From Octopus vulgaris (lineage: Eukaryota), in assembly GCA_951406725.2 (NCBI GenBank), contig OX597823.1, positions 93,062,001 through 93,126,000 of the forward strand: 64,000 nt of DNA, given 5' to 3'. A program made the translations under genes and the position numbers. The notes beneath the pieces are model-generated. The model worked only from the letters and a program-made list of their open reading frames with translations, did no database searches and was not told the origin of the DNA. Shown piece by piece: positions 11,992 through 63,297 of this stretch (its first letter is position 1; each line of letters begins with the position of its first letter).

Positions 11992-12661
11992 CCATATCTT
12001 TGCTACCCACAAGGGGCTAAACACAGAGAGGATAAACATAGACAGACCAACAGATTAAGTCGATTAAATCGACTCCAGTGCGTAACTGGTACTTATTTAA
12101 TCGATCCCGAAAGGATGAAAGGCAAAGTCGACCTCAGCGGAATTTGAACACAGAACGTAACGGCAGACTAAATATCTATTTCTTTACTACCCACAAGGGG
12201 CTAAACACAGAGAGGAAAAACAAGGACAGACAAACGGATTAAGTCGATTATATCGACCCCTGTTTGTAACTGGTAATTAATTTATCGACCCCCGAAAAGA
12301 TGAAAGGCAAAGTCGACCTCGGCGGAATTTGAACTCAGACCGTAGTGGCAGACGAAATACGGCTACGCATTTCACCCGGCGAGCTAAAGTTTCTGCCAGC
12401 TCGCCGCCTTGAGAGAGCTGTATGATATACCTATTTCTTTACTACCCACAAGGAGCTAAACACAGAGGGGACAAACAAGGACTGATAAAGGGATTAAGTC
12501 GACTATATCGACCCCAGTGCGTAATTGGTACCTATTTAATCAATCCCCAATGGATGAAAGGCAAAGTCGACCTCGGTGGAATTTGAACTCAGAACGTAAC
12601 GGCAGAAGAAATACGGCTACGCATTTCACCCGGCGTGCTAACGATTCTGCCAGCTCGCTAC
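11992..12661 (-). mobile_element. cluster of three SINE family B units with triplicated target site
   Basis: Units 11992-12175 (headless), 12176-12410 and 12431-12661. Motif CTG(G/T)(G/A)TGATATAC at 11975-11991, 12414-12430 and 12662-12674. Confidence 0.85.
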
Positions 12662-15484: not shown

Positions 15485-15520
15485 GTTTAACGTTTCGAGC
15501 ACACGCTCATCTTCGGAAAC
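15485..15520 (-). ncRNA. minimal type I hammerhead motif (CCGAAGA core variant)
   Basis: Minus strand GTTT-CCGAAGA-T-GAGC-GTGT-GCTC-GAAA-CG-TT-AAAC. Confidence 0.6.
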
Positions 15521-24306: not shown

Positions 24307-26291
24307 CTCATTTAGGTATGCACTTATTTTTGTTAAGTACTCTCTCTTCTTGACGAAGCACCATATTACAGGGACCTAAACACCCTAACACCGGTTGTCA
24401 AGTGGTGTGGAACACATACATATATATACATGCACACATACACACACAACCATACATACAAACACACACACAAACAAACGCACATACAAACACACACACA
24501 CACACACACACACAAGCACACCAACACAAATACAAACACAAACACATATATATTTTTAAAATTTAACAAAGTGACAACGAACGGAAACTTTTACAAAATT
24601 ATAACAAGCAGAAAATACGTAGCTTATTCCCCATCAGCCAACGTTCAAAATCTCATTACAATTTCGCTTCTTTAAAGTTGATATTGGTCATTCTTGGTAG
24701 AGCCAGTGGCGTAAAGTCACTGGGAATAACTAACGAAGATACGGGACATTGACGAAAACGAACGCAACACCGTAAAATATACATATACAGCAAAAGAAGA
24801 CATGCGGCTGCAGAGTGAAAATGTCCTGTAGTGCTGGAAACGATAGAAGGACAGATAGAACGTCAGAACAAAGTAAAGTATCGGGGAGGGAAAAAGAGAG
24901 AAAGAGAGGGAAGAAGGCAATTGCGAGGCAAAGAAAGAGAAAGAGAAAAATAGACGACGCACATAAAAAAATATATACCAAAAATACTTTACAAATGCGT
25001 TTTAAAAAGTCAGAAGTGCATAGCGTTGAAGAAATATTTATTTAAAAATTAAGAAAAGCACAGCAAACGGAAAATTAAAGTAGGGCTCCTTCAGTTTCCG
25101 TCAGATGAATCCCCTCAGAAGCAATTGGTCGGCTCGAAACAATAGTAGACGAACAACTAGCCAATGTTTCATGCAGTGGGACTGAACCCGAAGCCATGTG
25201 GTGAGGAAGTAAGCCTCTTACCACAGAGGGATAGGCGTTTTCTTCATAACTTTCATATAATATTACAAAACATATTCACGCAACAGATATTTAAAGGGCA
25301 AACAGTTTCATTTCATCAGTTGAATGATTGCAAAGGTTTAACTCAAAGTACTGGAAATATAAACCCTCCAATAATAACATATTGTACCCTACAAAACACC
25401 TGCGTATTAAGTCCTGTAGTTTCTCATTTTTCTGTGAATCCAAAGACGTATTAGTTTTGGTATGAGTCAAATTGTGTCTAATGGACAACATCATGTTCAT
25501 TTCTATTCCAAGACCACATTCACTCCATCCATGCATTTTTGGATCAGAGAATCAACTAACACACATCCCATTTCATCATACATTCAAAATATCGAGATAG
25601 ATATGAGAAAACAGCCAATACAGACATTCTCACCTCGTCTTTATTACCTGTTATCCAATATATCCGCAGAATTTTGCTTGGTTCGCTTTGTCCACCTAGA
25701 CAACCGCATTGGTTGAGGGAAAGGTCGTACACTAAGATTTGGTCAGTTATCATCGATATTTTATCAATAATGTCGTTTTCAATATAGTGTCTTTATGATT
25801 ATTTTAGATTAGATATCAGTGCTATTTCTGATTTTAGTCCAGCAACATTCAGGCATTACTGATATCCTTTCTGTCTTGATGTCTTAGTTGCTGGTCATGG
25901 AGTATTATTAATTTCATGGTCATTTTCTTTGTAATTTCTGACATTAAAGATAGCCGCTGCTTTTTGGCCACCATGTGTATTTTGATATACGTACCACAGA
26001 TGCACACATTCGAACATCCATCCATCCATGCATATATATATATACATATATTCATTCATATATACAGATATACATACATAAATACATAGATCCATCAATA
26101 CACTCATAATCAAACACACGTACATACATACATACATACATACATACATACATACATACATACATACATACATAGTTACATACATATATACATACATACA
26201 TACATAGTTACATATATATATATACATATATACATACATACATACATACATACATACATACATACATACAGGCATGCATACATACATACAG

Positions 26292-26758
26292 GAATATTGG
26301 TGGAATATTCCAATCAAAAAACTTCTATCAATGTAAACATAACAGGCCGGATATTTTTGTTTGGGACAGAGGGGCAAATTTATGTACCGTCATAGAGGTC
26401 AGCTGCCCTGCACATATAAATGTCTCTTTAAAAATCACAGACAAAAAGGATATCTATGGACAACTGCTTCGAAACAACCAGCTTCTATATCAAGACTATG
26501 AATTCATATTCATACCAATAATAATTGGAGCATTAGGTTTTGTTAGTAAATGCTTAAAGGAGAATCTGAATGAACTGGGATTTTCAGAAAAGGAATCCGT
26601 ACATTACAATTGCGATCCGTGAGTGGAACACTAAAAATATGCAAGACTTTTCTCAGGTTCCAAATGTAAATTTGTGCGAACTATATCCCAAAGATAGAGC
26701 CTTGAATGTTTGCTTCAAACCAGCTCCCTCCTCAGTTGAAGATTTATAATATTTAAAG
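26292..26758 (+). mobile_element. 3' fragment of RLE non-LTR retrotransposon (R4/NeSL-like)
   Basis: NRPDIFVWDRGANLCTVIEVSCP...YGQLLRN..FIPIIIGALGFVSKCLKENLNELGF...SGTLKICKTFLRFQM*; begins after (CATA)n. Confidence 0.8.
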
Positions 26759-28056
26759 ATAGAAGAGACACACATGCATACACACACACATACCTACCTA
26801 CCTACAAACACACATACTTACATACATACAATACGTAATTTGTTATGTATTTTACCGATACTTTCTCATAACGTATCAAGTTGAAGCAATAATTACAACC
26901 CTCTCGAAAAAAAAAGCAATTTTCTCCCCACGTCGTTTGAAGTCAAAAGAAACTGATGTATACATTGCAGACCATTCTATCATTTATATAATTGTTCACT
27001 GTATTTAAAAATCTCTGCAACTGTCTTTATATCACTTCAAGGATATAACAGAAAACAAAACTGAAGACAACTTGACTACTGGCCATTCCGCTGTCTGCCA
27101 GGTCTGTATCTGCTGTCAGATAATTTAATGCTGAAGTCAAAAGTTGTACAAGAATAGAAATACGATATGCCCTGATTACCATTCTTTACTGCATACGATT
27201 ACACATTGTATCGTTTATAAAAGACGTGATATACAATGACATACATTTACGATACACGTTATAAAATCGTGTGAGTCACCTTATTATTTGACCAAATGCA
27301 ATATAAACTGGTCGTTTGTTAGTCATATGATCTCAGACGTATCAATGAGAATTCTGACCAGCTGAAATCTAAAACACGGTAATGATAAAATAAAACGCAG
27401 ATAAAATTTCCTATATTTGAAACTTTACCAAATATATGAATACATGAAATCAATGTGCAATATAATATTTGTCATGTTTGCTTGGGGAACTTCATAGATA
27501 AAACTATTTAAATTAAATTTCTTTTGCTGGAGTGATCTGCTGAAAGTTATGAAGCAAATATGAGTGCTCTGATACAGAGTATTAGCGATATGTTTTAGCA
27601 AAATATACATTAAATTTATAAAGAATGTGTAAAATATAAATGCAAGTATGAGATACAAAGTAATATAGCTACTTAAATTGTAATTAACTCCTGTTTAGAG
27701 TAAAGATTAAATAGTGTCGTTCGTATTAGTACACAGAGAAGCGCGTGATGATGTCAATCAATATGTACACAACGAGTATGGCAGCAGGCTGCCAGAATCA
27801 TAGTCGCGCCGAAAAACTGCTTGGCGACATTTCTTCTGTTTTGTATTCAAATACCACGTGGGTCTACTATGCTATTAATCCTTTCGTGGTCAATGAAATA
27901 AGTACTAGTTGACTACTGGGGTCGATATATAACCGACATCCCACCTCCATCACAACTGATGGCCTTGTACCAAAATTTGAAGCCAGTCTGTTTATAGAAA
28001 GTAATAGAGCACATTATTTTTAATTAACGTCCGCACGAATGTACAATTTGGAATAA

Positions 28057-28184
<128 letters not shown>

Positions 28185-28383
28185 GTATATACTAAGTAAT
28201 TAAGGGTTTAGCAACGAATTGCCTCACCAACACACCGAATTTAGAAATAGCAGTCAAAGAGATATAGCTATTCCTTCTACTAAAAGGGGGATCTCAGTAA
28301 AAACACAGCACTTAAAAGGCAAACACAGACAGGTAAGAAAGAAAGAATGAAATGACGGCAATCCATCATGCAATTTTAAGTTA

Positions 28384-28475
28384 CCTACGGACGTACGTTT
28401 CGAGATCAAGTTTTAGGATATCATAAGAATTAGAAAATTCTACTTTACCCAGACTTCTTCTCTCATCGGCGCAGG
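28384..28475 (-). ncRNA. type I hammerhead ribozyme (copy 1, 585-bp unit)
   Basis: CCTGCG-CCGATGA-GAGA..TCTC-GAAA-CGTACG-TC-CGTAGG. Stem I 6 bp, palindromic stem III, GUC site. Confidence 0.75.
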
Positions 28476-28968
28476 ATACTACAATTGTGAATAATTGTAT
28501 ATTAAATTTTGAGATACTAGAATGCGTCATCTCAACTCAGTGTCAGAGCGAGCCAAAGCATGACCAGTACCACGAAATTCAAAGTTTGAATGAAAGTTTG
28601 TGTCACCAGCCCCCTTCCACCCGCGTGTAGCCAAGACAAAATGCTGTGGTCATTTACTGGGATAAAATATGGTTATCAGTAATAATCAGTGAAATTAATT
28701 AATTAGGGATAATTATCAATTACACCAAGTAGATTTCGGTATGTAAAAGCCCCATTCGAGGAAAATTTAAGTAATACTAAGTAATTAAGGGTTTAGCAAC
28801 GAATTGCCTCACCAACACACCGAATTTAGAAATAGCAGTCAAAGAGATATAGCTATTCCTTCTACTAAAAGGGGGATCTCAGTAAAAACACAGCACTTAA
28901 AAGGCAAACACAGACAGGTAAGAAAGAAAGAATGAAATGACGGCAATCCATCATGCAATTTTAAGTTA

Positions 28969-29060
28969 CCTACGGACGTACGTTTCGAGATCAAGTTTTA
29001 GGATATCATAAGAATTAGAAAATTCTACTTTACCCAGACTTCTTCTCTCATCGGCGCAGG
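28969..29060 (-). ncRNA. type I hammerhead ribozyme (copy 2, 585-bp unit)
   Basis: Identical to 28384-28475. Confidence 0.75.
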
Positions 29061-29336
29061 ATACTACAATTGTGAATAATTGTATATTAAATTTTGAGAT
29101 ACTAGAATGCGTCATCTCAACTCAGTGTCAGAGCGAGCCAAAGCATGACCAGTACCACGAAATTCAAAGTTTGAATGAATGTTTGTGTCACCAGCCCCCT
29201 TCCACCCGCGTGTAGCCAAGACAAAATGCTGTGGTCATTTACTGGGATAAAATATGGTTATCAGTAATAATAAAAGGGTGAAATTAATTAATTAGGGATA
29301 ATTATCAATTACACCAAGTAGATTTCGGTATGTATA

Positions 29337-29400
<64 letters not shown>

Positions 29401-29803
29401 CCGAAATCTACTTGTCTAAAAGTCTAAAAGATGAATTAGGGTAAATGTTTTTGAATTTTCACCTAATTTTTGAATTACTACTACTTGGCGGTGTGAGTTA
29501 TGGCTGCTCTTTCTGGTGGACGAATGACCTGTTAGGGTCATTCCTAAATTGTTATATTTATATACTTAGTCGATGACTATTTTCTCTTTTCCACCAGGCC
29601 GTTGGTAGCGATAAATTTCTATTGAATTTTTTTGCTACCCTAAATTGACTAATTGATAATTTTCTGAATAATTCTGAGATTGAATCGGCAGTTTATATTT
29701 ACTGCTGATAAGTTTGGCGCGAATACGTCAGTCTTGAAAATTTTAAGACAGATATTCCTTAGGCATCGATACAGACGCCTCGTGTATATTTGTCTATCCC
29801 AGG

Positions 29804-29905
29804 TCTTTTACTGATGAAGTGTAACCTATGGTAGATTAGCTTAATTTAATTTAATTAAGCTAATTTAATCATTAATGACACAGAAACGTTGCAACGTCTA
29901 AAAGA
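29804..29905 (+). ncRNA. type I hammerhead ribozyme (copy 1, 474-bp unit)
   Basis: TCTTTTA-CTGATGA-A-GTGT..ACAC-A-GAAA-CGTTGCAACG-TC-TAAAAGA. Stem I 7 bp; predicted cleavage after C29898. Confidence 0.82.
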
Positions 29906-30277
29906 TGAATTAGGGTAAATGTTTTTGAATTTTCACCTAATTTTTGAATTACTACTACTTGGCGGTGTGAGTTATGGCTGCTCTTTCTGGTGGACGAATG
30001 ACCTGTTAGGGTCATTCCTAAATTGTTATATTTATATACTTAGTCGATGACTATTTTCTCTTTTCCACCAGGCCGTTGGTAGCGATAAATTTCTATTGAA
30101 TTTTTTTGCTACCCTAAATTGACTAATTGATAATTTTCTGAATAATTCTGAGATTGAATCGGCAGTTTATATTTACTGCTGATAAGTTTGGCGCGAATAC
30201 GTCAGTCTTGAAAATTTTAAGACAGATATTCCCTAGGCATCGATACAGACGCCTCGTGTATATTTGTCTATCCCAGG

Positions 30278-30379
30278 TCTTTTACTGATGAAGTGTAACC
30301 TATGGTAGATTAGCTTAATTTAATTTAATTAAGCTAATTTAATCATTAATGACACAGAAACGTTGCAACGTCTAAAAGA
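30278..30379 (+). ncRNA. type I hammerhead ribozyme (copy 2, 474-bp unit)
   Basis: Identical to 29804-29905; predicted cleavage after C30372. Confidence 0.82.
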
Positions 30380-30596
30380 TGAATTAGGGTAAATGTTTTT
30401 GAATTTTCACCTAATTTTTGAATTACTACTACTTGGCGGTGTGAGTTATGGCTGCTCTTTCTGGTGGACGAATGACCTGTTAGGGTCATTCCTAAATTGT
30501 TATATTTATATACTTAGTCGATGACTATTTTCTCTTTTCCACCAGGCCGTTGGTAGCGATAAATTTCTATTGAATTTTTTTGCTACCCTAAATTGA

Positions 30597-30682
<86 letters not shown>

Positions 30683-31144: not shown

Positions 31145-34100
31145 TTATTGCGAAGAACCTCGTCTAATATGTGGCACTTGGTGAAGAATGGAGTTTGATA
31201 TAGCTACTCTCATTTGCACCTCTTGCTGTGAGGTAGGTTCATCTGGGACTCTTGACAGGAAGATGTCCAGCTTTGATTTAAAAACCGCTACATCTACTTT
31301 GTGCAAGTTCCTCAGACTCTTTGGGAGAATATTAAAAAGCTGTGGGCCCTTGAAACCCAGGCTGTTGCAGAAGCTGGTCCTGAAGCGTGATGGCATTGCT
31401 GGGATCTTTGGCACTATGCAGTGTCGTCCCGTTCTAGCATTGGTGTAGCTTACAATGCCAAAATTTGGCACAATTCCTTCCAGGATCTTCCAGACATATA
31501 TTACTGCATACCTCTCCCGTCTTCTCTCCAGGGAGTAGAGTCTTAGCTGTTTCAACCTTTCCCAGTAGCTGAGCTGTTGCAAAGAGACGATCTTCTTTGT
31601 GAATCTTCTCTGGATTGCTTCAAGGTCCGCTGTTAATTTCACACTGGTGGGTGACCATAGTGTGAGCAGTAATCCAGGCGTCTGAGGACGAATGTCCGCC
31701 AGAGGACCATCATGGTTTCCTTATCTCTGGTTCTGAATGTTCTTAGGATCCACCCAGCCAGTCGTCTGCACTTTGTCGCCATCCTGGTAATTGGCACTTG
31801 GAAAGAGGTATCATCACTCATGTCGATACCCAGGTCCCTCACAGACTTAGGCTCTGGGATTGAAATTCCCTGTGGACCGGTGTATCCTGTAAGTTTAATA
31901 TTCAGTTTTGGATGCTGGTAGTCCAGGGCCTGGAATTTTTCAGCATTAAACTGCATATTATTATCCTCAGCCCATCTGTAGATTGAGTCCAACTCCTGCT
32001 GCAGGTGTGCAACATCGCTGGGGTTCTGTATTTTCTGCGAGACTTTCTATCGTCTGCATAGCTGGCCAGAGTGGCTATCCGGGCATTTGAGGGCATATCT
32101 GAGAGGGCCACTATAAAAAGCAGTGGTCCCAAGACAGTGCCCTGTGGAACACCGCTCACTATTTGTGTGTTCATAGAGGTGGCTCCATTAACCACTACTG
32201 CCTGACTCCTATCTTTCAGGAAGTCATGTAACCACACTCCAAGTTTTCCAGCTATGCCGAGGTCACGTAGTTTGTGGCATATCATACCATGATCCACCTT
32301 GTCAAAAGCTTTTGCAAAATCAAGGTAGATTACGTCCACATTTGATTTGTTGAGTAACTGCCTCAACACCCAGTCATAATGTTGTAAGAGCTGGGTCAGG
32401 CAGCTCCTACCTGGTCGAAAACCATGCTGGGTATCACTCAGCAAGTTATTTTCCACAAGGAATGCGATTAGTTTCTTTCTGACTATCCGTTCCATGACTT
32501 TGTTGATGCGTGAAGTCAGAGAGATAGGCCTATAGTTTTTGGCATCTGCTCTACTTCCCCCTTTATGTATTGGGCATATTATTCCCTCCTTCAGCTTGCT
32601 TGGCAGTTTGCCATTCACAAGAAAGCTCTGGAAGAGAATCTTGAGGGGTTTTGCCAGGGCATGCTTACACGCTTTGAGGAGGATGGCTGGGAAACCATCT
32701 GGACCAGCAGCTGAGTTTGTGTCCACTTCATCTATGGCTAGTAGGACATCTTTTTCGCTAATGTCAATACATTCTATTGTAACCGCCTCGCTGGTTATAG
32801 GTGAGGCGGCAAAGAAGTCCACTGGTTCGTTCACTTGTCTGTGTTCCAACGGGGTGGTAAAGACACTTTTGAACTGGTCATTCAGCATCTCACTGATCTT
32901 AGTTGGACTGTCTGTGAGGGAGCCATTCTTTTGGAGGAGGGGTCCTATCTTGTAGTGCACTGAGACTGTTTCTTTCGCGTAATGAAAGAAGGCCTTTGGG
33001 TTTGATTTAATATTTTTTATAACCCAGGCTTCTTTGTCTGCTTTCTCCTTCACATAGGATTGTTGCAGCCTTTTTTCGATCTCCATCAGTGTTGTTTTTA
33101 GGCGGGACGCTTCGCTACTTTTAGGATGTTGGTTGAGACGATTTGCAACCTTCGTCCGTCGTCTCATGAGGATCTTCCTGTCTCTTGGAATCTTCCTCCT
33201 ATTTGTTTTGGCCTTGTGCTCTGGGACATATTTCTGGCATACGGCTTGCACAGAAGACATGAAACATTCTAGTTTCATGTCAATGTCTCGTGTGGAGAGA
33301 CATTCCGGCCAGTCCTCCTGAGGATCTCTTTTTGGATCGATTTCCAATCTGCTTTGTGGAAGTTCAGATTGGAGAGATTTCGAGTGCTTCCTTTAGGCTG
33401 TATGTCTCTGGTTACTTTTGGCCCAAACATAGACAGCTCTATTATGTTGTGATCCGAAACTGATGTCGGTGTCACTTTCACATCATGAATGATGTCCATA
33501 TTGTTCGTGAAGCAGAGATCCAGAATGTTATTCGCCCTAGTTGGCTTCAGTACAACTTGCTCCATGAATAAGGCATTGGTGAGGTTGAGCAGGGACTCCA
33601 CCTGTACTTGCTTGCAATGATTCATTCCTGAGAGTATGTGACCTTCGGGCTATTTGACGCTGGGGAAGTTGAAATCACCCATAAGAAATATGGTCACGTG
33701 GTGTTCCAGATTCATGAGGATTTCTTTAATTCTTGTGAGGTAAACTTCACACTTGCCTGTGTGAATTGGGGCATCCGGTGGGCAATATGTATTGCATACG
33801 ACTATATTATGTTGTCTTATGTATACAATTAAAGTGTCACATACCGAATTTGAGTATGTCATTAAGACCTGGGGTGTGAGGTCATCTCGGATGTATACAG
33901 CAACTCCACCATGGCTTTTTTCCCTTCTGTCTGTTCGCAGTATGGCATAGTTTGGTATGTGTACTTCTGCGTCCTCTATATCAGGGTTGAGGTGAGTTTC
34001 CACAAGTGCTATGCATAGGGCTTGATTGCATGCAGTAAGATCTCTCAGGAAAGAAATTTTGTTTCTATTTTGATGCAACAGGCCCACGATATTTAGTAAA

Positions 34101-34246
34101 AGTATTGGGGTGACGGCTGTGCAGGCGTTAGGAGAGGCCATCCCGTGTCTGTTGACTGTGGTGGTCTTGCATAGTGATGGGGAGGGTTCCTTCTCTGTGC
34201 TTAGTGTAGCCAGGTTAGATGCCGGACAATTCTTTGTGCCATGCAT
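31145..34246 (-). pseudogene. LINE ORF2 (APE endonuclease + reverse transcriptase), several frameshifts
   Basis: LLNIVGL, ALVETHL, MGDFNFP, ILDLCF, SDHN (APE); NYRPISLTS, QHGFRPGRSC, YLDFAKAFDKVDH, GVPQGTVLGP, YADD (RT); C-terminal SLERRRERY. Confidence 0.95.
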
Positions 34247-35038
34247 TAAAAAGACTCTTGCTCAGCTGCTGCGTTGCGCAGAAAATCTGAAGAGCGCACT
34301 TCGTTTTTGAAAGTTTTTGAAAGTTTTCCTGTGAGACATTTTTTGTGTTCCCTCGGTAACGCTTTTCTCTTTGAGTCCCCTGAAGTTCTAGCGGGGTGTC
34401 GGGTGGGCGAACCGGCAGTTTTTGCCGTCCTCACCATGCCAACATTTGCCCCGCAGGTAGAATTTACAGGTTCTTCGGTGCCTTCCAGATTTCTTCCTTA
34501 CTGAAGCGTACTGGGTGGCATTGGATCCTCCATGGGGTTCTCTGTTATTTCTGTGGTGGGTTGGGGTTTCAGCTTTGGTTGTTTTGATTTTCCTCCTTTT
34601 CCCTCCTTATTTTTGTTTTCGGTCCTTCCTTTTTCTTCTGGTTTTCTAATTTTTCATTTCTTGGTACAGGGGGGCTTCCGGTTTCTGCTCCCGTGGCTCC
34701 CCTATCCTTCACTACCTGGTCGTTCACCGGGGTAGATGATCCTGAGGAACCCCTAGATCACATATACTTCCGGCTTCCTTCTCTTTTTCGTCCTCTTCAT
34801 TTTCATCAGCCTTGCCACAATAATTTTCAATTATGTGGTCCAGTGGTTTGATGTGTGGTCTTATAAGCATGTAAGACAGGATAAATTCGCCTTTTTTTCG
34901 TTCTATTTGGTCAATGGTTCTATGAAATCCATTGTTCTTTAGCGTGGCAGTGATGATGTTGTTCGGCGGATCGCCATTAGCAATTGTCCATGCTCTTAGC
35001 AGAAGATCTAACTCTTTCTTTTCCCACCTTGGTGCCAT
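34246..35038 (-). pseudogene. LINE ORF1 remnant: N-terminal Myb/SANT(trihelix)-like segment and a CCCH zinc finger
   Basis: MAPRWEKKELDLLLRAW..IITATLKNNGFHRTIDQIERKK (35038-34865); CKFYLRGKCWHGEDGKNCRFAH (34468-34403). Confidence 0.65.
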
Positions 35039-36638: not shown

Positions 36639-38267
36639 TTGCGGCCAAAATGTTCAGAACGGCATTGTTTTCGTCAGAAAAGTAGATATAATTTTTTATC
36701 AAAGTTGTTTTATATTCTATAATTTTCACAGACAATAAATACAATATTAATTGTTATTGTCTGAGATTTTGGTGTAATTTGAGAGGATAATACAAAAGTT
36801 ATGGATGATTTAGTGATTTACTGCAAAACCCATGGCCGCCAAAATGATCAGATCGGTTGAAAAAATAACAAAATAATCAAAAATAACAGAGAATATTGGA
36901 ATTATTTAATATTTAGTGTTAAGCCCTTTAGCTTCAATCACACTCTGACATCTTCGACTGTATGAGGAAATTAAATTTTCAATTTCTTGCTGGGTGATCT
37001 GATTCCATTCTTCCTGAAGGGCATTCCAGAATTGCTTAGTTGCTTTAGGATTTCTGGCTTTCGAACGTTCTCCTAGAATATTCCACACATTTTCAGTAGG
37101 ATTGAGATCTGGGCTTTGAGCTGGCCAACCCATAACAATAACCTTTTCAGCCTTGAGGAAGTTCATGACCACCTTAGCCTTGTGACATGGGGCATTGTCC
37201 TGCATGAATATGGGTGGTCGCTTAGTTAAATTTCTCAGCACAGGCAAGACATGATCTTTTACAAGTTGTTTATAAACTCCTACATTTAACTTTCCATGTA
37301 ATCGCACCAAATGGCCCACACCATCTCCAGATATCATTCCCCAAACCATGACACTTCCTCCACCGAATTTAACACTAGTCTTAAGGCATTTAGGCAACAA
37401 TTTTTCACCTACTTTTTCTACGAACGAACCTTTTCTCATCTGAGCTAAATAACATAGACTTAGATTCATCACTGAAATGAACCGTTTGCCATTTCTCTTG
37501 AGACCTCAACATATGTTCGGTTGCAAAGGTAAGACGACACTTTTTATTCTCGGAGCTGATCAGTGGCTTCACTGCAGGTGCTCTTGCTTGTAGGTCATGT
37601 TCAACTAAACGACGAGACACAGTTTTTCGAGATAAAGTTTTCTACAATACAACGCTCATTTTCCAAAAAAACAGCAGCAGCAGTTTTAAAACTGTCCTTT
37701 TTAACCAACTTTACCATAGCCCGATCTTCTCTCTTGGTCGTTTTTCTTGGCCTACCTGTAAACTTGCTTGCTTCACACGAACCACAATCATCGTAGACCT
37801 TAAGAATACCGTGTACAACACTTTTTGACTTGTTAACAATCTTTGCAATAGATCCAATACTTAAATTATCCTTTCCTTCGAAGCTTAATAATCTGCTGAC
37901 GAATTGGTAACGGAGTAAGTGGCATTATATTAACAAAGTACACTGCAAATATTCTTACTAATGTTTAGTAAACGAACCATCACGTAAACAAATTCAAAAC
38001 ATTAGAGTTCGCCGGTTAAATATACTAAAACACGGAGTAAAAGCAACCGTTCTGATCATTTTGGCCGACATGGGTTTTGCAGTATATCACTAAATCATCC
38101 ATAACTTTTGTATTATCCTCTCAAATTACACCAAAATCGCAGGCAAGAGCAAATAGTATCGTATTTATTGTCTGTGAAAATTATAGATTATAAAACAACT
38201 TTGATAAAAAATTATATCTACTTTTCTGACGAAAACAATGCCGTTCTGAACATTTTAACCGCAACTG
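36636..38267 (-). mobile_element. Tc1-family DNA transposon (1632 bp) with ~220-bp IR/DR-type TIRs and TA target
   Basis: TA|CAGTTGCGG...CCGCAACTG|TA. TIRs ~36636-36859 and ~38044-38267, each with outer and inner direct repeats (CCAAAATGTTCAGAACGG / CCAAAATGATCAGATCGG). Confidence 0.95.
36906..37925 (-). pseudogene. Tc1 transposase (DD34E), frameshifted
   Basis: ATG at 37925 (MPLTPLPIRQQIIKL), GRPRKTT, VHFSDESK, VKFGGGSVMVWG, FMQDNAPCH, SPDLNPTENVW; 34 residues between the second D and E. Confidence 0.93.
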
Positions 38268-47855: not shown

Positions 47856-48113
47856 AAGTATTCGTTGAGATATCTTTGAATAGGAAATATAAATAAGAAG
47901 GGAAACGAGAGAAAGAGTGAGAGAATGTGAGAGCATTTTGATGGACAACGGTGAATCTCACATACTGTTTTTCAGTTATCTTGATCTATAGGCTTCATAA
48001 TAACATTTCATCACATCACTTCAGCTGAATGGGAGACCAATATGTTGTACACTTAAAGTCGAGCAATTCTGAAGAAACAGCGAAATGATTACTTTGACCA
48101 ATGTATTGAATAC

Positions 48114-48897
48114 TTATTTCTTTATTGCCCACAAGGGGCTAAACATAGAGGGGACAAACAAGGACAGACAAAAGGATTAAGTCGATTATATCGATCCCAG
48201 TGCGTAACTGCTACTTATTCAATCGACCACGAAAGGATAAAAGGCAAAGTTGACCTCGCCGTAATTTGAAATCAGAACGTAGCGGCAGACGAAATACCTA
48301 TTTCCTTACTTCCCACAAGGGGCTAAACACAGAAGGGACAAACAAGTACAGACAAACGGATAAAGTCGATTACATTGACCCCAGTGCGTAACTGCTACTT
48401 ATTTAATCGACCCCGAAATGATGAAAGGCAAAGTCGAGCTCGGCGGAATTTGAACTCAGAACGTAACGGCATACGAAATACCCATTTCTTTACTACCCAC
48501 AAGGGGCTAAACACAGAGAGGACAAACAAAGAGAGACACACTGATTAAGTCGATTATATCGACCCCAGTGCATAACTGGTACTTAATTTATATACTCCGA
48601 AAGGATGAAAGGCAAAGTCGACCTCGGCGGAATTTGAACTCACAACGTAACGGCAGACGAAATACCTATTTCTTTACTACCCACAAGGGGCTAAACACAG
48701 AGGAGACAAACAAGGGCAGACAAACGAATTAAGTCGATTATATCGACCCCAGTGCGTAACTGATACTTATTCAATCGACGCCGAATGGATGAAAGGCAAA
48801 GTCGACCGCGGCGGAATTTGACCTCAGAACGTAGCGACAGGCGAAATACCGATAAGTATTTCGCTCGACGTGCTAACGATTCTGCCAGCGGGCCTCC
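48114..48897 (-). mobile_element. tandem array of four SINE family B units (184-bp period) with a single head
   Basis: Units start at ~48114, 48298, 48482 and 48666. The A-box head (TGGCAGAATCGTTAGCAC on minus) is present only at ~48850-48897. Confidence 0.9.
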
Positions 48898-59904: not shown

Positions 59905-62900
59905 TCACCCATCTTTTTTAAAACATTCGCTAGACAAAACTTGCCTCTCTACTCTCACTTTCCTTTTCAAGTGGTACTTGAAGAAGTTGATGAGAGATTG
60001 ACCAGAGAGGAAAGTGTTTGTCTCCAATCCTTTCAGACGCGTCCACCAGATACATTCTTTCGCCATAGCCACAAGGATGATGAAAATAGCTCTTCCTTCC
60101 CGTTTGAAGGAAGGAGGCGTGACAATATTGACGATAGACTCAGCTGATAAACCGAGTCGTCCCACACGTGACAGCAGTTGTTCGACACAAGCCCACAGGT
60201 CGGAAATTGTTGGACACTGCACGAGTGCGTGCAGAACGGTTTCGTCGCTCTGACCGCATCTCGGGCAGGCCGGCCCCGTATTTCTCGAGCCGTGTCTGTA
60301 GAGCTTATCCCGAACGGGTAGCGCTTCTCGGTAGCACTGCCAGGCCAGGGATCTCTGGAAGTTGTCCATGGACCCTGGCCCGAAAGTCGTCCTGAACAGG
60401 CGGGTCAGGTACTCCTCGTCGACGTCCAGGTTCGCCCCGAGCTCGTCGTCGTACCTCCCCTCCACTAAACCCCTATAGAATGCTTTGGTTGTGTTGAAGT
60501 CACTCAAGGTCGACCCAGGACGGCAGAGTTGCTTGAGAGCAACGTGACACTCGCGGTGCCATTCGCCCTTCTTCGGCCTCTTTTTGATCCACGACTGCAG
60601 TTCGGTCTTGGAGACGAGCTGCGGGAAAGCGTTCCTCACAAACGGCGACCACACCTGTTCACCGTCGTCTACATAGAGCCAGAGATGTCGCAGTCTCAGC
60701 GCGTGTCTGCGCATCATCAACCACGGCATGCCCAGCCCTCCTTTTAACGGGTGTTGACAGCAAATGGATCGCCTGACCATCGGGACGCATCCTTTCCACA
60801 AGAAGCGACAGAGAATGCGTTGTAGTTTGGTGATGGTAGGGTCGGGACAAGGTACGACAGTCAGGCGGTAGTAGATGACGGACGCGATGTACGTGTTCGC
60901 CACCTCCGCCCGACCTTTTAGGGACAGTTTCCTCTCGGCCCATTGCCGGGCGAGAGTGACCACCCTACGCGTTATCTCGTTCCAGTTCTTCTCCACTTGG
61001 AGGTCCGGACCAAACCAGACCCCGAGCAACTCAACCGGGCCGTCGGTCCAGCGTGCCACGACGGAGGCGCTGGTGGACGGCATGGGCTTGCTTCTCCAGG
61101 TGCCTAGTCGCAAGCCCACTGACTTTTCCCGGTTGATTTTCGCTCCTGTCACCGCTTCGTAGTTTTTCAGTGTCTCGCCGACCTGCTCGATGTGCTCGTG
61201 GCTAGACACTATGACGGTGACGTCGTCCGCGTATGCAGACACGCTCGTCCCGCATCCCAGTTCTCGCGGGATGCCTCTCAAGGTTGCCAGCTTCCGCAAT
61301 AATGGCTCGAGAGTCAATACGTATAGAAGCGACGAGAGGGGGCATCCCTGACGGACCGAACGTGCGATGTCGAAGGGTCTCGATAGATGTCCATTCACGC
61401 GAATTACCGAACGGATGCCTCTGTACAAAGCGGCTATCCAGCCGCGGAAGACGGGACCGAAGCCAGCCGCTCCGAGGACCGCCTGCAAGTATCGATGGTC
61501 CACCCTATCGAAACCTTTCGATTGATCCAAATTGATCAGCGCCCCACCCATGCCAGGTTCGTTAACTACCCTGTCTATGATGTAGCGCATCAAGTGGAGG
61601 TTGTCATGGATGGTCCGGTCTGGCACGGCGCATGTTTGCGCCCTGTCGACCAGTTTCTCGATGACAAGCGCCAACCTCTTGGCTAGCACCTTGGCCAAAA
61701 TTTTCAAGTCTGCATTAAGCAGAGTGATGGGCCTAAAGTTATCTATTACATTTCCCTTGTTTAGATCTTTCTTCAGCAGTGTTACGGCTCCTCGGCTCAC
61801 AAAACCAGGAATGCTCCCGTTTTGCTGCCAGTTGCAATACACCGCCGCCAAGAGATCTCCAAACAAGTCTGGCATACAATTGTAAAGCTCGTAGGGTAGA
61901 CCATCCAAACCCGGTGATTTGTCCCCCGAGCATTCTGCCATCGCTTCCTGCACTTCCGCCGCCGTGATGGAACCTTCGCAGCACCCTGCCTTTCTTGTCG
62001 AGAGTTGTGGTAGGCTATGTAGGTAGGCACTGAAGTCCACCCTACGTTCTTGCCCTCCACTCGTTCCGAACAGTCGGGCAAAATGCTGCTGAAAGGCCTC
62101 ACACATTTTACTTGGCTCGAGCAATTCGCGCCCCTGTTCATCTACCAGGGACCGAATGGTGGCTTTGTTGCCCTGTTGCGCCTCTACCACCCGGGCCTCT
62201 CTCGCGGCTCCAACACCTTCGTTCCTTAGAGCACGCATCCTAGCTCTGACAGCACATCCTTCGTGTTTGGCGTTGAAGTGTTGGTCGAGGGCCAACCTCG
62301 CCGCCATAACGTCGGATGCGATGCCGCTTCTAATTGCCTCTTCTAGCTTCTTAACTAGCTCACCCTCTACTCTATTTCTATCTATGGCTAGTGCTTTGCT
62401 GTACCTAATCGCTTCTGCTTTTACTGCTCTCTTGAGAGCAAACCACCATTTGTTGTTGATGATGGCTCCCGTCAAAGCCCTCTTTACTAGTGTGCTAATC
62501 CGGTCTCTGAAAACCTGTCTCGATGGGAAAGACGCGTTTAGTTTCCAGTATCCGGGACCCTGCCTAAGTGTCTTACCTAAGTCTAGCGTACATGTCACAA
62601 GTTTGTGATCCGTGTAGCTGACTATGTGGAATTGTGGACATCCTATGCTATCTCTGTCTACTGTCCTACACAGTATCCTATCTAGATACGATCTCGACGA
62701 CCCGATGCGGTTGCTCCATGTCCACGTTGGCGCATTCGAGTGGTCTAGTCGGAACCTGTCAGACAGTTGAAAGCGTCTGAGCAGGTCTCTGAGGCATTTG
62801 CATCCCCGTCTATTCCTATATCTACCCACGTAGTCTACATGCGTGTCCAAGGTAGCATTCCAATCCCCCATTAAGCGTAAAGGACGAGACGTTCCCAAGA

Positions 62901-63285
62901 ATACTTCTAGACGTTGAAAGAAATCCACCCGACCTGTTAAGGGCGGTGCGTAGACTGATACGAGTCGAAAAGCGCACCCATTGCTGCCGTCGACATCCAG
63001 GACGACCAGTCTACCCTCCGGGTCTACGAATATTGTCCTTACTTTGAGATCCAGACTCTTGTGAAAAAGTACCGCGGTGCCACTACCGCCCATTCTCGGC
63101 AGACAGGGGGAAAAATAAATGTTGAACTGTCCGCCAAACATGGTCTTTAGGGCCCGCGGATTGTGGAGTCTGGTCTCACTTATGGCTATGATTTCTAACT
63201 TATGTGACTTTATGTCATTTAAGAGGTACCCTTGTTTCCAAGGGGACCCCAAGCCACGCGCATTTACACAACCAATCTTGATCAT
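59905..63285 (-). CDS. Tx1-like ORF2: APE endonuclease, reverse transcriptase, C-terminal CCHC (zf-RVT), 1126 aa uninterrupted
   Basis: VNARGL, ISETR, VYAP, GDWNA, YLDRI, TDHK, PGYWKLNAS, KSPGLDGLP, FRPITLLNADLKILAK, VRQGCPLS, YADD, GGLG, CPRC..ETVLHALVQC. Confidence 0.95.
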   Translation of the reverse strand: MIKIGCVNARGLGSPWKQGYLLNDIKSHKLEIIAISETRLHNPRALKTMFGGQFNIYFSPCLPRMGGSGTAVLFHKSLDLKVRTIFVDPEGRLVVLDVDGSNGCAFRLVSVYAPPLTGRVDFFQRLEVFLGTSRPLRLMGDWNATLDTHVDYVGRYRNRRGCKCLRDLLRRFQLSDRFRLDHSNAPTWTWSNRIGSSRSYLDRILCRTVDRDSIGCPQFHIVSYTDHKLVTCTLDLGKTLRQGPGYWKLNASFPSRQVFRDRISTLVKRALTGAIINNKWWFALKRAVKAEAIRYSKALAIDRNRVEGELVKKLEEAIRSGIASDVMAARLALDQHFNAKHEGCAVRARMRALRNEGVGAAREARVVEAQQGNKATIRSLVDEQGRELLEPSKMCEAFQQHFARLFGTSGGQERRVDFSAYLHSLPQLSTRKAGCCEGSITAAEVQEAMAECSGDKSPGLDGLPYELYNCMPDLFGDLLAAVYCNWQQNGSIPGFVSRGAVTLLKKDLNKGNVIDNFRPITLLNADLKILAKVLAKRLALVIEKLVDRAQTCAVPDRTIHDNLHLMRYIIDRVVNEPGMGGALINLDQSKGFDRVDHRYLQAVLGAAGFGPVFRGWIAALYRGIRSVIRVNGHLSRPFDIARSVRQGCPLSSLLYVLTLEPLLRKLATLRGIPRELGCGTSVSAYADDVTVIVSSHEHIEQVGETLKNYEAVTGAKINREKSVGLRLGTWRSKPMPSTSASVVARWTDGPVELLGVWFGPDLQVEKNWNEITRRVVTLARQWAERKLSLKGRAEVANTYIASVIYYRLTVVPCPDPTITKLQRILCRFLWKGCVPMVRRSICCQHPLKGGLGMPWLMMRRHALRLRHLWLYVDDGEQVWSPFVRNAFPQLVSKTELQSWIKKRPKKGEWHRECHVALKQLCRPGSTLSDFNTTKAFYRGLVEGRYDDELGANLDVDEEYLTRLFRTTFGPGSMDNFQRSLAWQCYREALPVRDKLYRHGSRNTGPACPRCGQSDETVLHALVQCPTISDLWACVEQLLSRVGRLGLSAESIVNIVTPPSFKREGRAIFIILVAMAKECIWWTRLKGLETNTFLSGQSLINFFKYHLKRKVRVERQVLSSECFKKDG

Positions 63286-63297
63286 AGTCCTAATGAA

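Follow-up and report, generated by a model that had tools for sequence, protein, structure and literature searches.

The two tandem units at positions 28,189 to 29,334 of the window (the whole 64,000-nt stretch of Octopus vulgaris DNA that was analysed) belong to a young family of the non-LTR-retrozyme kind, present at hundreds of TA-repeat sites, in which the hammerhead ribozyme carries C instead of U at core position 4 (U4C). We consider it probable that this hammerhead would still cleave itself, slowly, and that the reverse transcriptase (RT)/GIY-YIG enzyme of a Penelope-like element (PLE) would copy the family in trans into (TA)n tracts. The units stand head to head with an array of a second, 474-bp family, and the relevant features of the window are as follows.

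15485..15520, minus strand: minimal hammerhead-like motif of a small decayed family, reading CCGAAGA
28053..28191, no strand: (TA)n tract flanking the 589-family arm on its 3' side (insertion target)
28189..28773, minus strand: 585-bp unit at the 3' end of the arm; its 3' terminus is the fixed site P1 (...CCCTTAATTACTTAGTAT), 201 nt beyond the cut
28384..28475, minus strand: type I hammerhead with U4C core (C4 at 28468), extended helix II and helix III palindrome ACGUACGU; predicted cut 28390/28389
28774..29334, minus strand: second unit, 5'-truncated, starting at unit position 29
28969..29060, minus strand: second hammerhead, identical to the first (C4 at 29053); predicted cut 28975/28974
29329..29400, no strand: central (TA)n between the two heads
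29395..29414, plus strand: 20-nt inverted copy of the 589-arm head, joined without TA to the 474-arm head
29415..29424, plus strand: duplicated (G)TCTAAAA junction; the 474 arm begins 3 nt upstream of the cut site of its own hammerhead
29422..30601, plus strand: 474-bp family array of 2.5 units with CUGAUGA hammerheads, predicted cuts after 29898 and 30372
30601, plus strand: end of the 474 array at the long 3' site of that family (unit position 229)
30600..30647, no strand: (TA)n tract flanking the 474-family arm on its 3' side

Each unit contains on its minus strand the motif CCTGCG-CCGATGA-GAGA..TCTC-GAAA-CGTACG-TC^CGTAGG (28475-28384 and 29060-28969), whose core matches the CUGANGA / GAAA / UH standard at all positions except U4C. 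The two units differ by 2 substitutions and a 4-nt gap, and an equally good motif appeared in 0 of 3000 dinucleotide shuffles of the unit, confirming the first-pass annotation's description of two near-identical tandem units with a variant hammerhead on the minus strand. Its repeat length of 585 bp is right for the window unit but not for the family, in which the usual unit, at 588-589 bp, is 4 nt longer; its statement that there is no ORF was borne out, the longest ATG ORF within a unit being 49 aa. What it took for a large stem II loop of ~57 nt is in fact a stretch of 53 nt between GAGA and TCTC, predicted to fold into a long imperfect extension of helix II, and it is probably because of this extension that Rfam gave no hammerhead match in the window or the repeat, even at E<=10. 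The cut-to-cut monomer folds with a z of -4.7 relative to shuffles and the circular monomer with a z of -3.7 to -4.4 (three subfamilies, 20 shuffles each). About 64% of the monomer is paired, at a GC content below 50%, and the structure is strand-polarised, with -154 kcal/mol for the sense versus -115 kcal/mol for the antisense strand.

The window also holds other elements, recognised largely by eye: an apparently near-intact LINE (L1/Tx1-like) with a 1130-aa open frame for endonuclease and RT (59905-63297, minus strand), a broken LINE (31145-34261, minus strand), a Tc1-like transposase fragment (36906-37505, minus strand), a fragment with the look of a restriction-like endonuclease (26176-26622, plus strand), and a SINE-like repeat in tandem arrays (12172-12658 and 48109-48850; 255 and 184 bp).

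Searches of the 2.8-Gb genome revealed near-identical copies of the unit on many contigs, with 174 matches at up to 99-100% identity when 40 of 2026 candidates were scored, and an intact long-hammerhead pattern matched 1078 times genome-wide versus 3 times for a control pattern. Like units form arrays on many contigs without an internal region or LTR/PBS/PPT architecture, the arrays reaching 10 full units with no ORF in between. In the 30 best loci, 54/54 motifs read CCGATGA; among same-flank copies genome-wide, at least 336 were CCGA and 70 were CTGA, and the two kinds are separate subfamilies, ~11% apart, both young as judged from mean within-group divergences of 1.3% and 2.0%. We found that the C4 rows form a single clade (support 98/98) nested among U4 (CUGAUGA) rows in trees of 29 and 21 representatives, which have a midpoint root only and in which the more distant rows are all U4. 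The C4 clade itself holds nested sub-clades, in four nested steps, and two stem changes postdate U4C: the gain of a G-U pair in stem I and a two-sided change from A-U to G-C in stem II. Contigs from runs labelled as two other organisms carry both U and C at position 4, so U4C is not an assembly error. The repeat is covered, in addition, by contigs of four runs tentatively taken to be RNA; these contigs carry no strand, end or circle information, the sequence of a circle junction equals that of a tandem junction once assembled, and we give them no weight in our reading.

As far as genomic sequence can tell, then, U4C is a lineage trait of a derived, expanding clade and not the decay of one copy. 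The first-pass annotation had taken a predominance of CTGATGA among genomic copies as the mark of a mutated copy; the intact motifs of the wider family are indeed mostly CTGA (CCGA in 37 of the 100 matches listed, counted by eye), but C4 is still a lineage trait, which makes that criterion partly misleading. The dispersed non-coding hammerhead units bear out its view of a retrozyme-like family, and its suggestion that CCGA may be a tolerated variant is backed by the expanding C4 clade together with the covariation, the cores of the 474-bp relatives and the pile-up of 5' ends described below.

Covariation in stems I and II, which that annotation had proposed as a check, was found. In 20 subfamily representatives, stem I was paired throughout (100%); overall, 97.8% of cells are paired and 3 of the 16 pairs have two-sided changes. 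Because these sequences are related to one another, the control by shuffling makes the result look more significant than it is, and the search pattern itself dictated helix III and the core, whose invariance among the tree representatives is built in. Between the two subfamilies, 1 of 39 motif positions had changed versus 60 of 488 others (binomial P 0.04, Fisher 0.11), which, taken alone, is a weak sign of constraint on the motif.

The 589-bp family has no alignable homology with the 474-bp family, in keeping with the earlier view that the two are distinct. Although U4C gave 0 matches in the exact window-type 474-bp family, CCGAUGA was present in 6/6 fetched loci of two subfamilies 75-85% similar to it, together with different, fully paired stems and a different palindromic helix III. 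Since the 474-bp family cannot be aligned to the 589-bp family, U4C likely arose at least twice. In these relatives (L357-L362), the palindromic helix III is fully covarying, with ACGATGCATCGT, ACTATGCATAGT vs ACGTTGCAACGT. The proposed independent recurrence of the CCGA core at 15485-15520 did not hold, as that site belongs to a small decayed family with a mixed position 4 (4 CC, 4 CT and 2 CA among 10 pattern matches), and we rejected it as support; scattered CCGA cores in an abundant short-hammerhead repeat were sporadic in look and were left out of the count.

The insertions of the 589 family share a distinctive anatomy. The 3' ends concentrate at two sites, P1 and P2, which lie 201 nt and ~305 nt past the cut, and 177 of 194 are followed by a TA-type microsatellite; the 5' ends are scattered by truncation, and target-site duplications are unreadable in (TA)n flanks. 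Head-to-head pairs combine the two sites: 45 of 62 in a first set were P1+P2, and among 90 pairs there were 65 P1+P2, 1 P2+P2 and 0 P1+P1, the other 24 having another arm end. The 474-bp family behaves alike, with 3' ends at unit positions 140 and 229. In both families, a CC(C)T(A/T)AATT-like motif precedes the 3' end sites by 0-15 nt (window 28189-28215, 28690-28720 and 30575-30601); it is possibly a recognition signal and resembles the complement of the TTAGGG telomere repeat.

Private variants are usually common to both arms of one insertion, across all units, as expected if a single template was copied several times. In one 7-unit array, variants recur with a period of roughly 3, suggesting that DNA-level duplication may have followed the insertion. 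Four mixed-subfamily head-to-head pairs were flagged elsewhere, but all had short arms and near-identical references and are not diagnostic. The first base after the cut was changed at 3 of 200 junctions, all in one insertion (L247, G000:C4:1501000-1507000), where 3/5 junctions were affected (two C>T, one C>A) versus 0/197 elsewhere; this confinement led us to reject general misincorporation at the ligation junction, and the changes could stem either from one circle whose modified ligation junction was copied over several times or from CpG decay.

The same genome contains a young autonomous PLE with an intact 781-aa RT+GIY-YIG frame, the full frame being present in 16 of 20 fetched loci that are 95-100% identical. 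This element ends before (TA)n, with the tail on one arm only in 3/3 head-to-head cases. Its loci (L171-L190, e.g. L173:2842-5187) show a Cys linker motif and tandem pLTRs, and at its 3' end there is a hammerhead-like motif with a U3-A8 core (TTGATAA..GAAA). According to the accessible part of PMC8557442, EN+ PLEs leave scars of 5' truncation, partial tandems and an inverted 5'-truncated partner. The units lack the RT + GIY-YIG ORF of the autonomous PLE and showed no similarity to 20 full-length PLE loci and the PLE parts of 30 GIY-YIG loci, in a screen in which the best 150 of 6136 candidates were scored and which sampled a minority of the genome's PLE families. Because the 589 family has no DNA similarity to the 781-aa PLE, we only infer the class of the partner enzyme. 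At one locus (L208:3349-1668), a family 3' end adjoins, via a short TA run, a 5'-truncated PLE of a second family with 64% protein identity to the 781-aa PLE; we set this junction aside as evidence of a partner PLE, since a common TA target explains it equally well as the alternative, a template jump.

The 5' ends may offer a record of cleavage. In C4 arms, stops 0-8 nt after the predicted cut occurred in 12 of 140 RT passes (10 insertions), ranking 1st of 66 analysis windows. For arms too short to include the core, the closest-matching reference decided the assignment to C4; of 9 cores grouped under one basal C4 reference, 5 are in fact U4. In U4 arms, such stops occurred in 6 of 85 passes, ranking 2nd of 66. 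The median stop rate per analysis window was 1.3%, few stops lay within the ribozyme, and a second analysis window, at +45, had a stop rate of 6%. When loci were picked by the 3' motif only, cut-site stop rates did not differ between C4 (7/51) and U4 (8/70; Fisher P 0.78), three of these U4 stops being probably one duplicated insertion, which was collapsed in the 66-window analysis. The most economical interpretation is that the RNA template in some cases stopped at the cut site, and because C4 and U4 5' ends both pile up there, the C4 variant likely still cleaves in the cell. The peak could in part be a pause at stem I, since ~90% of RT passes run through the cut site and there is the second peak at +45.

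Work on other hammerheads bears on how well such a core would cut. In the available text of PMC3088659, which cites Ambros and Flores (1998), U4C has considerably lower activity in vitro, and a natural viroid variant with U4C is described as slow in vitro yet sufficient for infectivity in vivo. Passages of two further papers describe poor cleavage by PLE-type minimal hammerheads (PMC4209133) and in vitro cleavage in only 1 of 9 Xenopus elements (bioRxiv 10.64898/2026.07.22.740005). Our folding predictions include an inactive monomer fold in which position 4 is paired to the palindrome of helix III, as U-G in 16 of 20 rows and as C-G in 4 of 20, and this fold is favoured by 2.9 kcal/mol in C4 copies versus 0.1-2.2 kcal/mol in U4 copies. 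It is possible that this core-helix III pairing protects the circle in C4 copies, the modelled effect being small. The palindrome ACGUACGU is predicted to form an intermolecular duplex of -9.8 kcal/mol and no stable hairpin, which fits the dimer model set out in the accessible parts of PMC4209133 and PMC7229834.

In the mechanism that we propose, tandem arrays would be transcribed and the hammerheads would cut, probably as dimers through the palindrome, leaving unit-length circles and/or partly cut multimers as the template. The PLE enzyme would nick both strands of (TA)n and prime one arm at P1 and the other at P2, and copying would end either randomly or at the end of the RNA, that is, the cut site. 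U4C would then be tolerated because slow cutting is enough.

Three other explanations were weighed against this. If U4C had killed the ribozyme, the C4 clade would be a SINE-like passenger of read-through array transcripts and the pile-up an RT pause at stem I. The low in vitro activity of U4C would agree with this, as would several stops at +6/+7, near the stem I edge, and the Naiad PLEs, which proliferate without canonical hammerheads according to the accessible text of PMC8557442. However, 6 of the 12 C4 stops fall at 0 to +5, inside the stem strand, with almost none just upstream; in addition, the two-sided stem II change was fixed after U4C, and U4C recurs in the 474-family relatives with stems still fully paired. 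We regard a dead ribozyme as decidedly unlikely.

It is very improbable, in our judgement, that the repeat represents a solo pLTR derived from an autonomous PLE and not an independently replicating non-autonomous element. The insertion scars are the same as those of PLEs, the L208 junction places a family 3' end beside a truncated PLE, and Xenopus retrozymes are homologous to pLTRs in the part of the preprint available (bioRxiv 10.64898/2026.07.22.740005); yet no PLE ORF lay upstream of a unit in any locus examined (best 150 of 6136 GIY-YIG candidates scored), four loci with PLE matches near family copies proved to be separate insertions, and arrays run to 10 full units without an ORF between them. 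An ordinary satellite spread by DNA-level events, with the hammerhead incidental, might account for the period-3 array and for the likely segmental duplicates at L339/L340, but is contradicted by the fixed 3' ends, the P1+P2 rule, the stem covariation, the random 5' truncation and the strand-polarised structure, and we give it hardly any credence. Copying by a PLE enzyme of slowly cut RNA remains our preferred explanation.

The composite in the window joins a 589 arm ending at P1 to a 474 arm ending at the long site, which is what the pairing rule requires of one insertion. In this single case, one event with two RNAs and two insertions into one TA tract seem to us about evenly matched. At another locus (L084), one TA tract accommodates both an array of the 474 family and, in the same orientation, a U4 relative of the 589 family. 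A joint reading, which we offer tentatively and consider rather unlikely, is that U4C is a recurrent tuning mutation and the composite one insertion primed on two RNA species. If this were true, C-G in place of the U-G wobble would hold the circular monomer 'off' and leave cutting to dimers in nascent tandem RNA, and the two arms, with the short site on one RNA and the long site on the other, would mean that a dimer of the Penelope enzyme loads two separate RNAs.

By the features readable in genomic DNA, the 589 family would be classed as a non-LTR retrozyme, as a variant of that class. As far as the accessible parts of PMC7229834 and bioRxiv 10.64898/2026.07.22.740005 describe them, non-LTR retrozymes likewise consist of non-coding units in tandem, each with a single type I hammerhead, and have low GC, a strongly self-paired monomer, a weak palindromic helix III, dispersed multi-copy families and co-occurrence with PLEs. 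At 589 bp, the unit exceeds the 150-450 bp given for retrozymes in 2020 (Cervera and de la Pena, PMC7229834) and lies within the 51-972 bp range of Li, Clavereau and Pollet 2026 (bioRxiv 10.64898/2026.07.22.740005). Features that set the 589 family apart from the retrozymes in those texts are its U4C core, its helix II of ~60 nt, its strict targeting of TA, its two fixed sites of priming and the lack of an evident contact between loops 1 and 2. With EN+ PLEs of the Neptune/Naiad type, to the extent covered by the available portions of Craig et al. 2021 (PMC8557442) and Cervera and de la Pena 2014 (PMC4209133), it shares the scars noted above from the former and, from the two together, the one-end tail, the (TA)n bias, the hammerhead near the 3' end and the palindromic helix III; it differs in having no ORF, a tail of ~100 nt versus 30-40 and no sequence match to the PLEs examined. 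The viroid U4C hammerhead (Ambros and Flores 1998, via PMC3088659, in part) has the same core substitution, but in the octopus it is fixed in hundreds of animal retroelement copies, and an unrelated second family of this genome has it as well.

The retrozyme class and its link to PLEs are already in print (passages in PMC7229834, bioRxiv 10.64898/2026.07.22.740005 and PMC8557442). We found no prior account of the 589 family or of U4C in an animal retroelement in literature coverage that took in few subscription papers and stopped short of the supplements of the 2026 preprint and the Cervera papers, which may list cephalopod families or core variants; the accessible part of PMC5614642 has nothing on U4C. 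What appears to be new is that a U4C core has become fixed in an animal clade that is expanding and recurs in a second family, together with putative genomic footprints of cleavage and PLE-type priming.

So far, co-occurrence and pLTR homology have been the grounds for proposing that PLEs mobilise retrozymes. In the octopus genome, the insertion scars match those of an active resident PLE, and the 5' ends would provide a DNA record of RNA cutting, so that retrozyme copying and the tolerance or use of a 'lethal' core in vivo become testable. Because canonical descriptors and Rfam miss such motifs, counts of retrozymes are likely too low. The sister subfamilies with U4 and C4, having expanded side by side, represent a natural matched pair.
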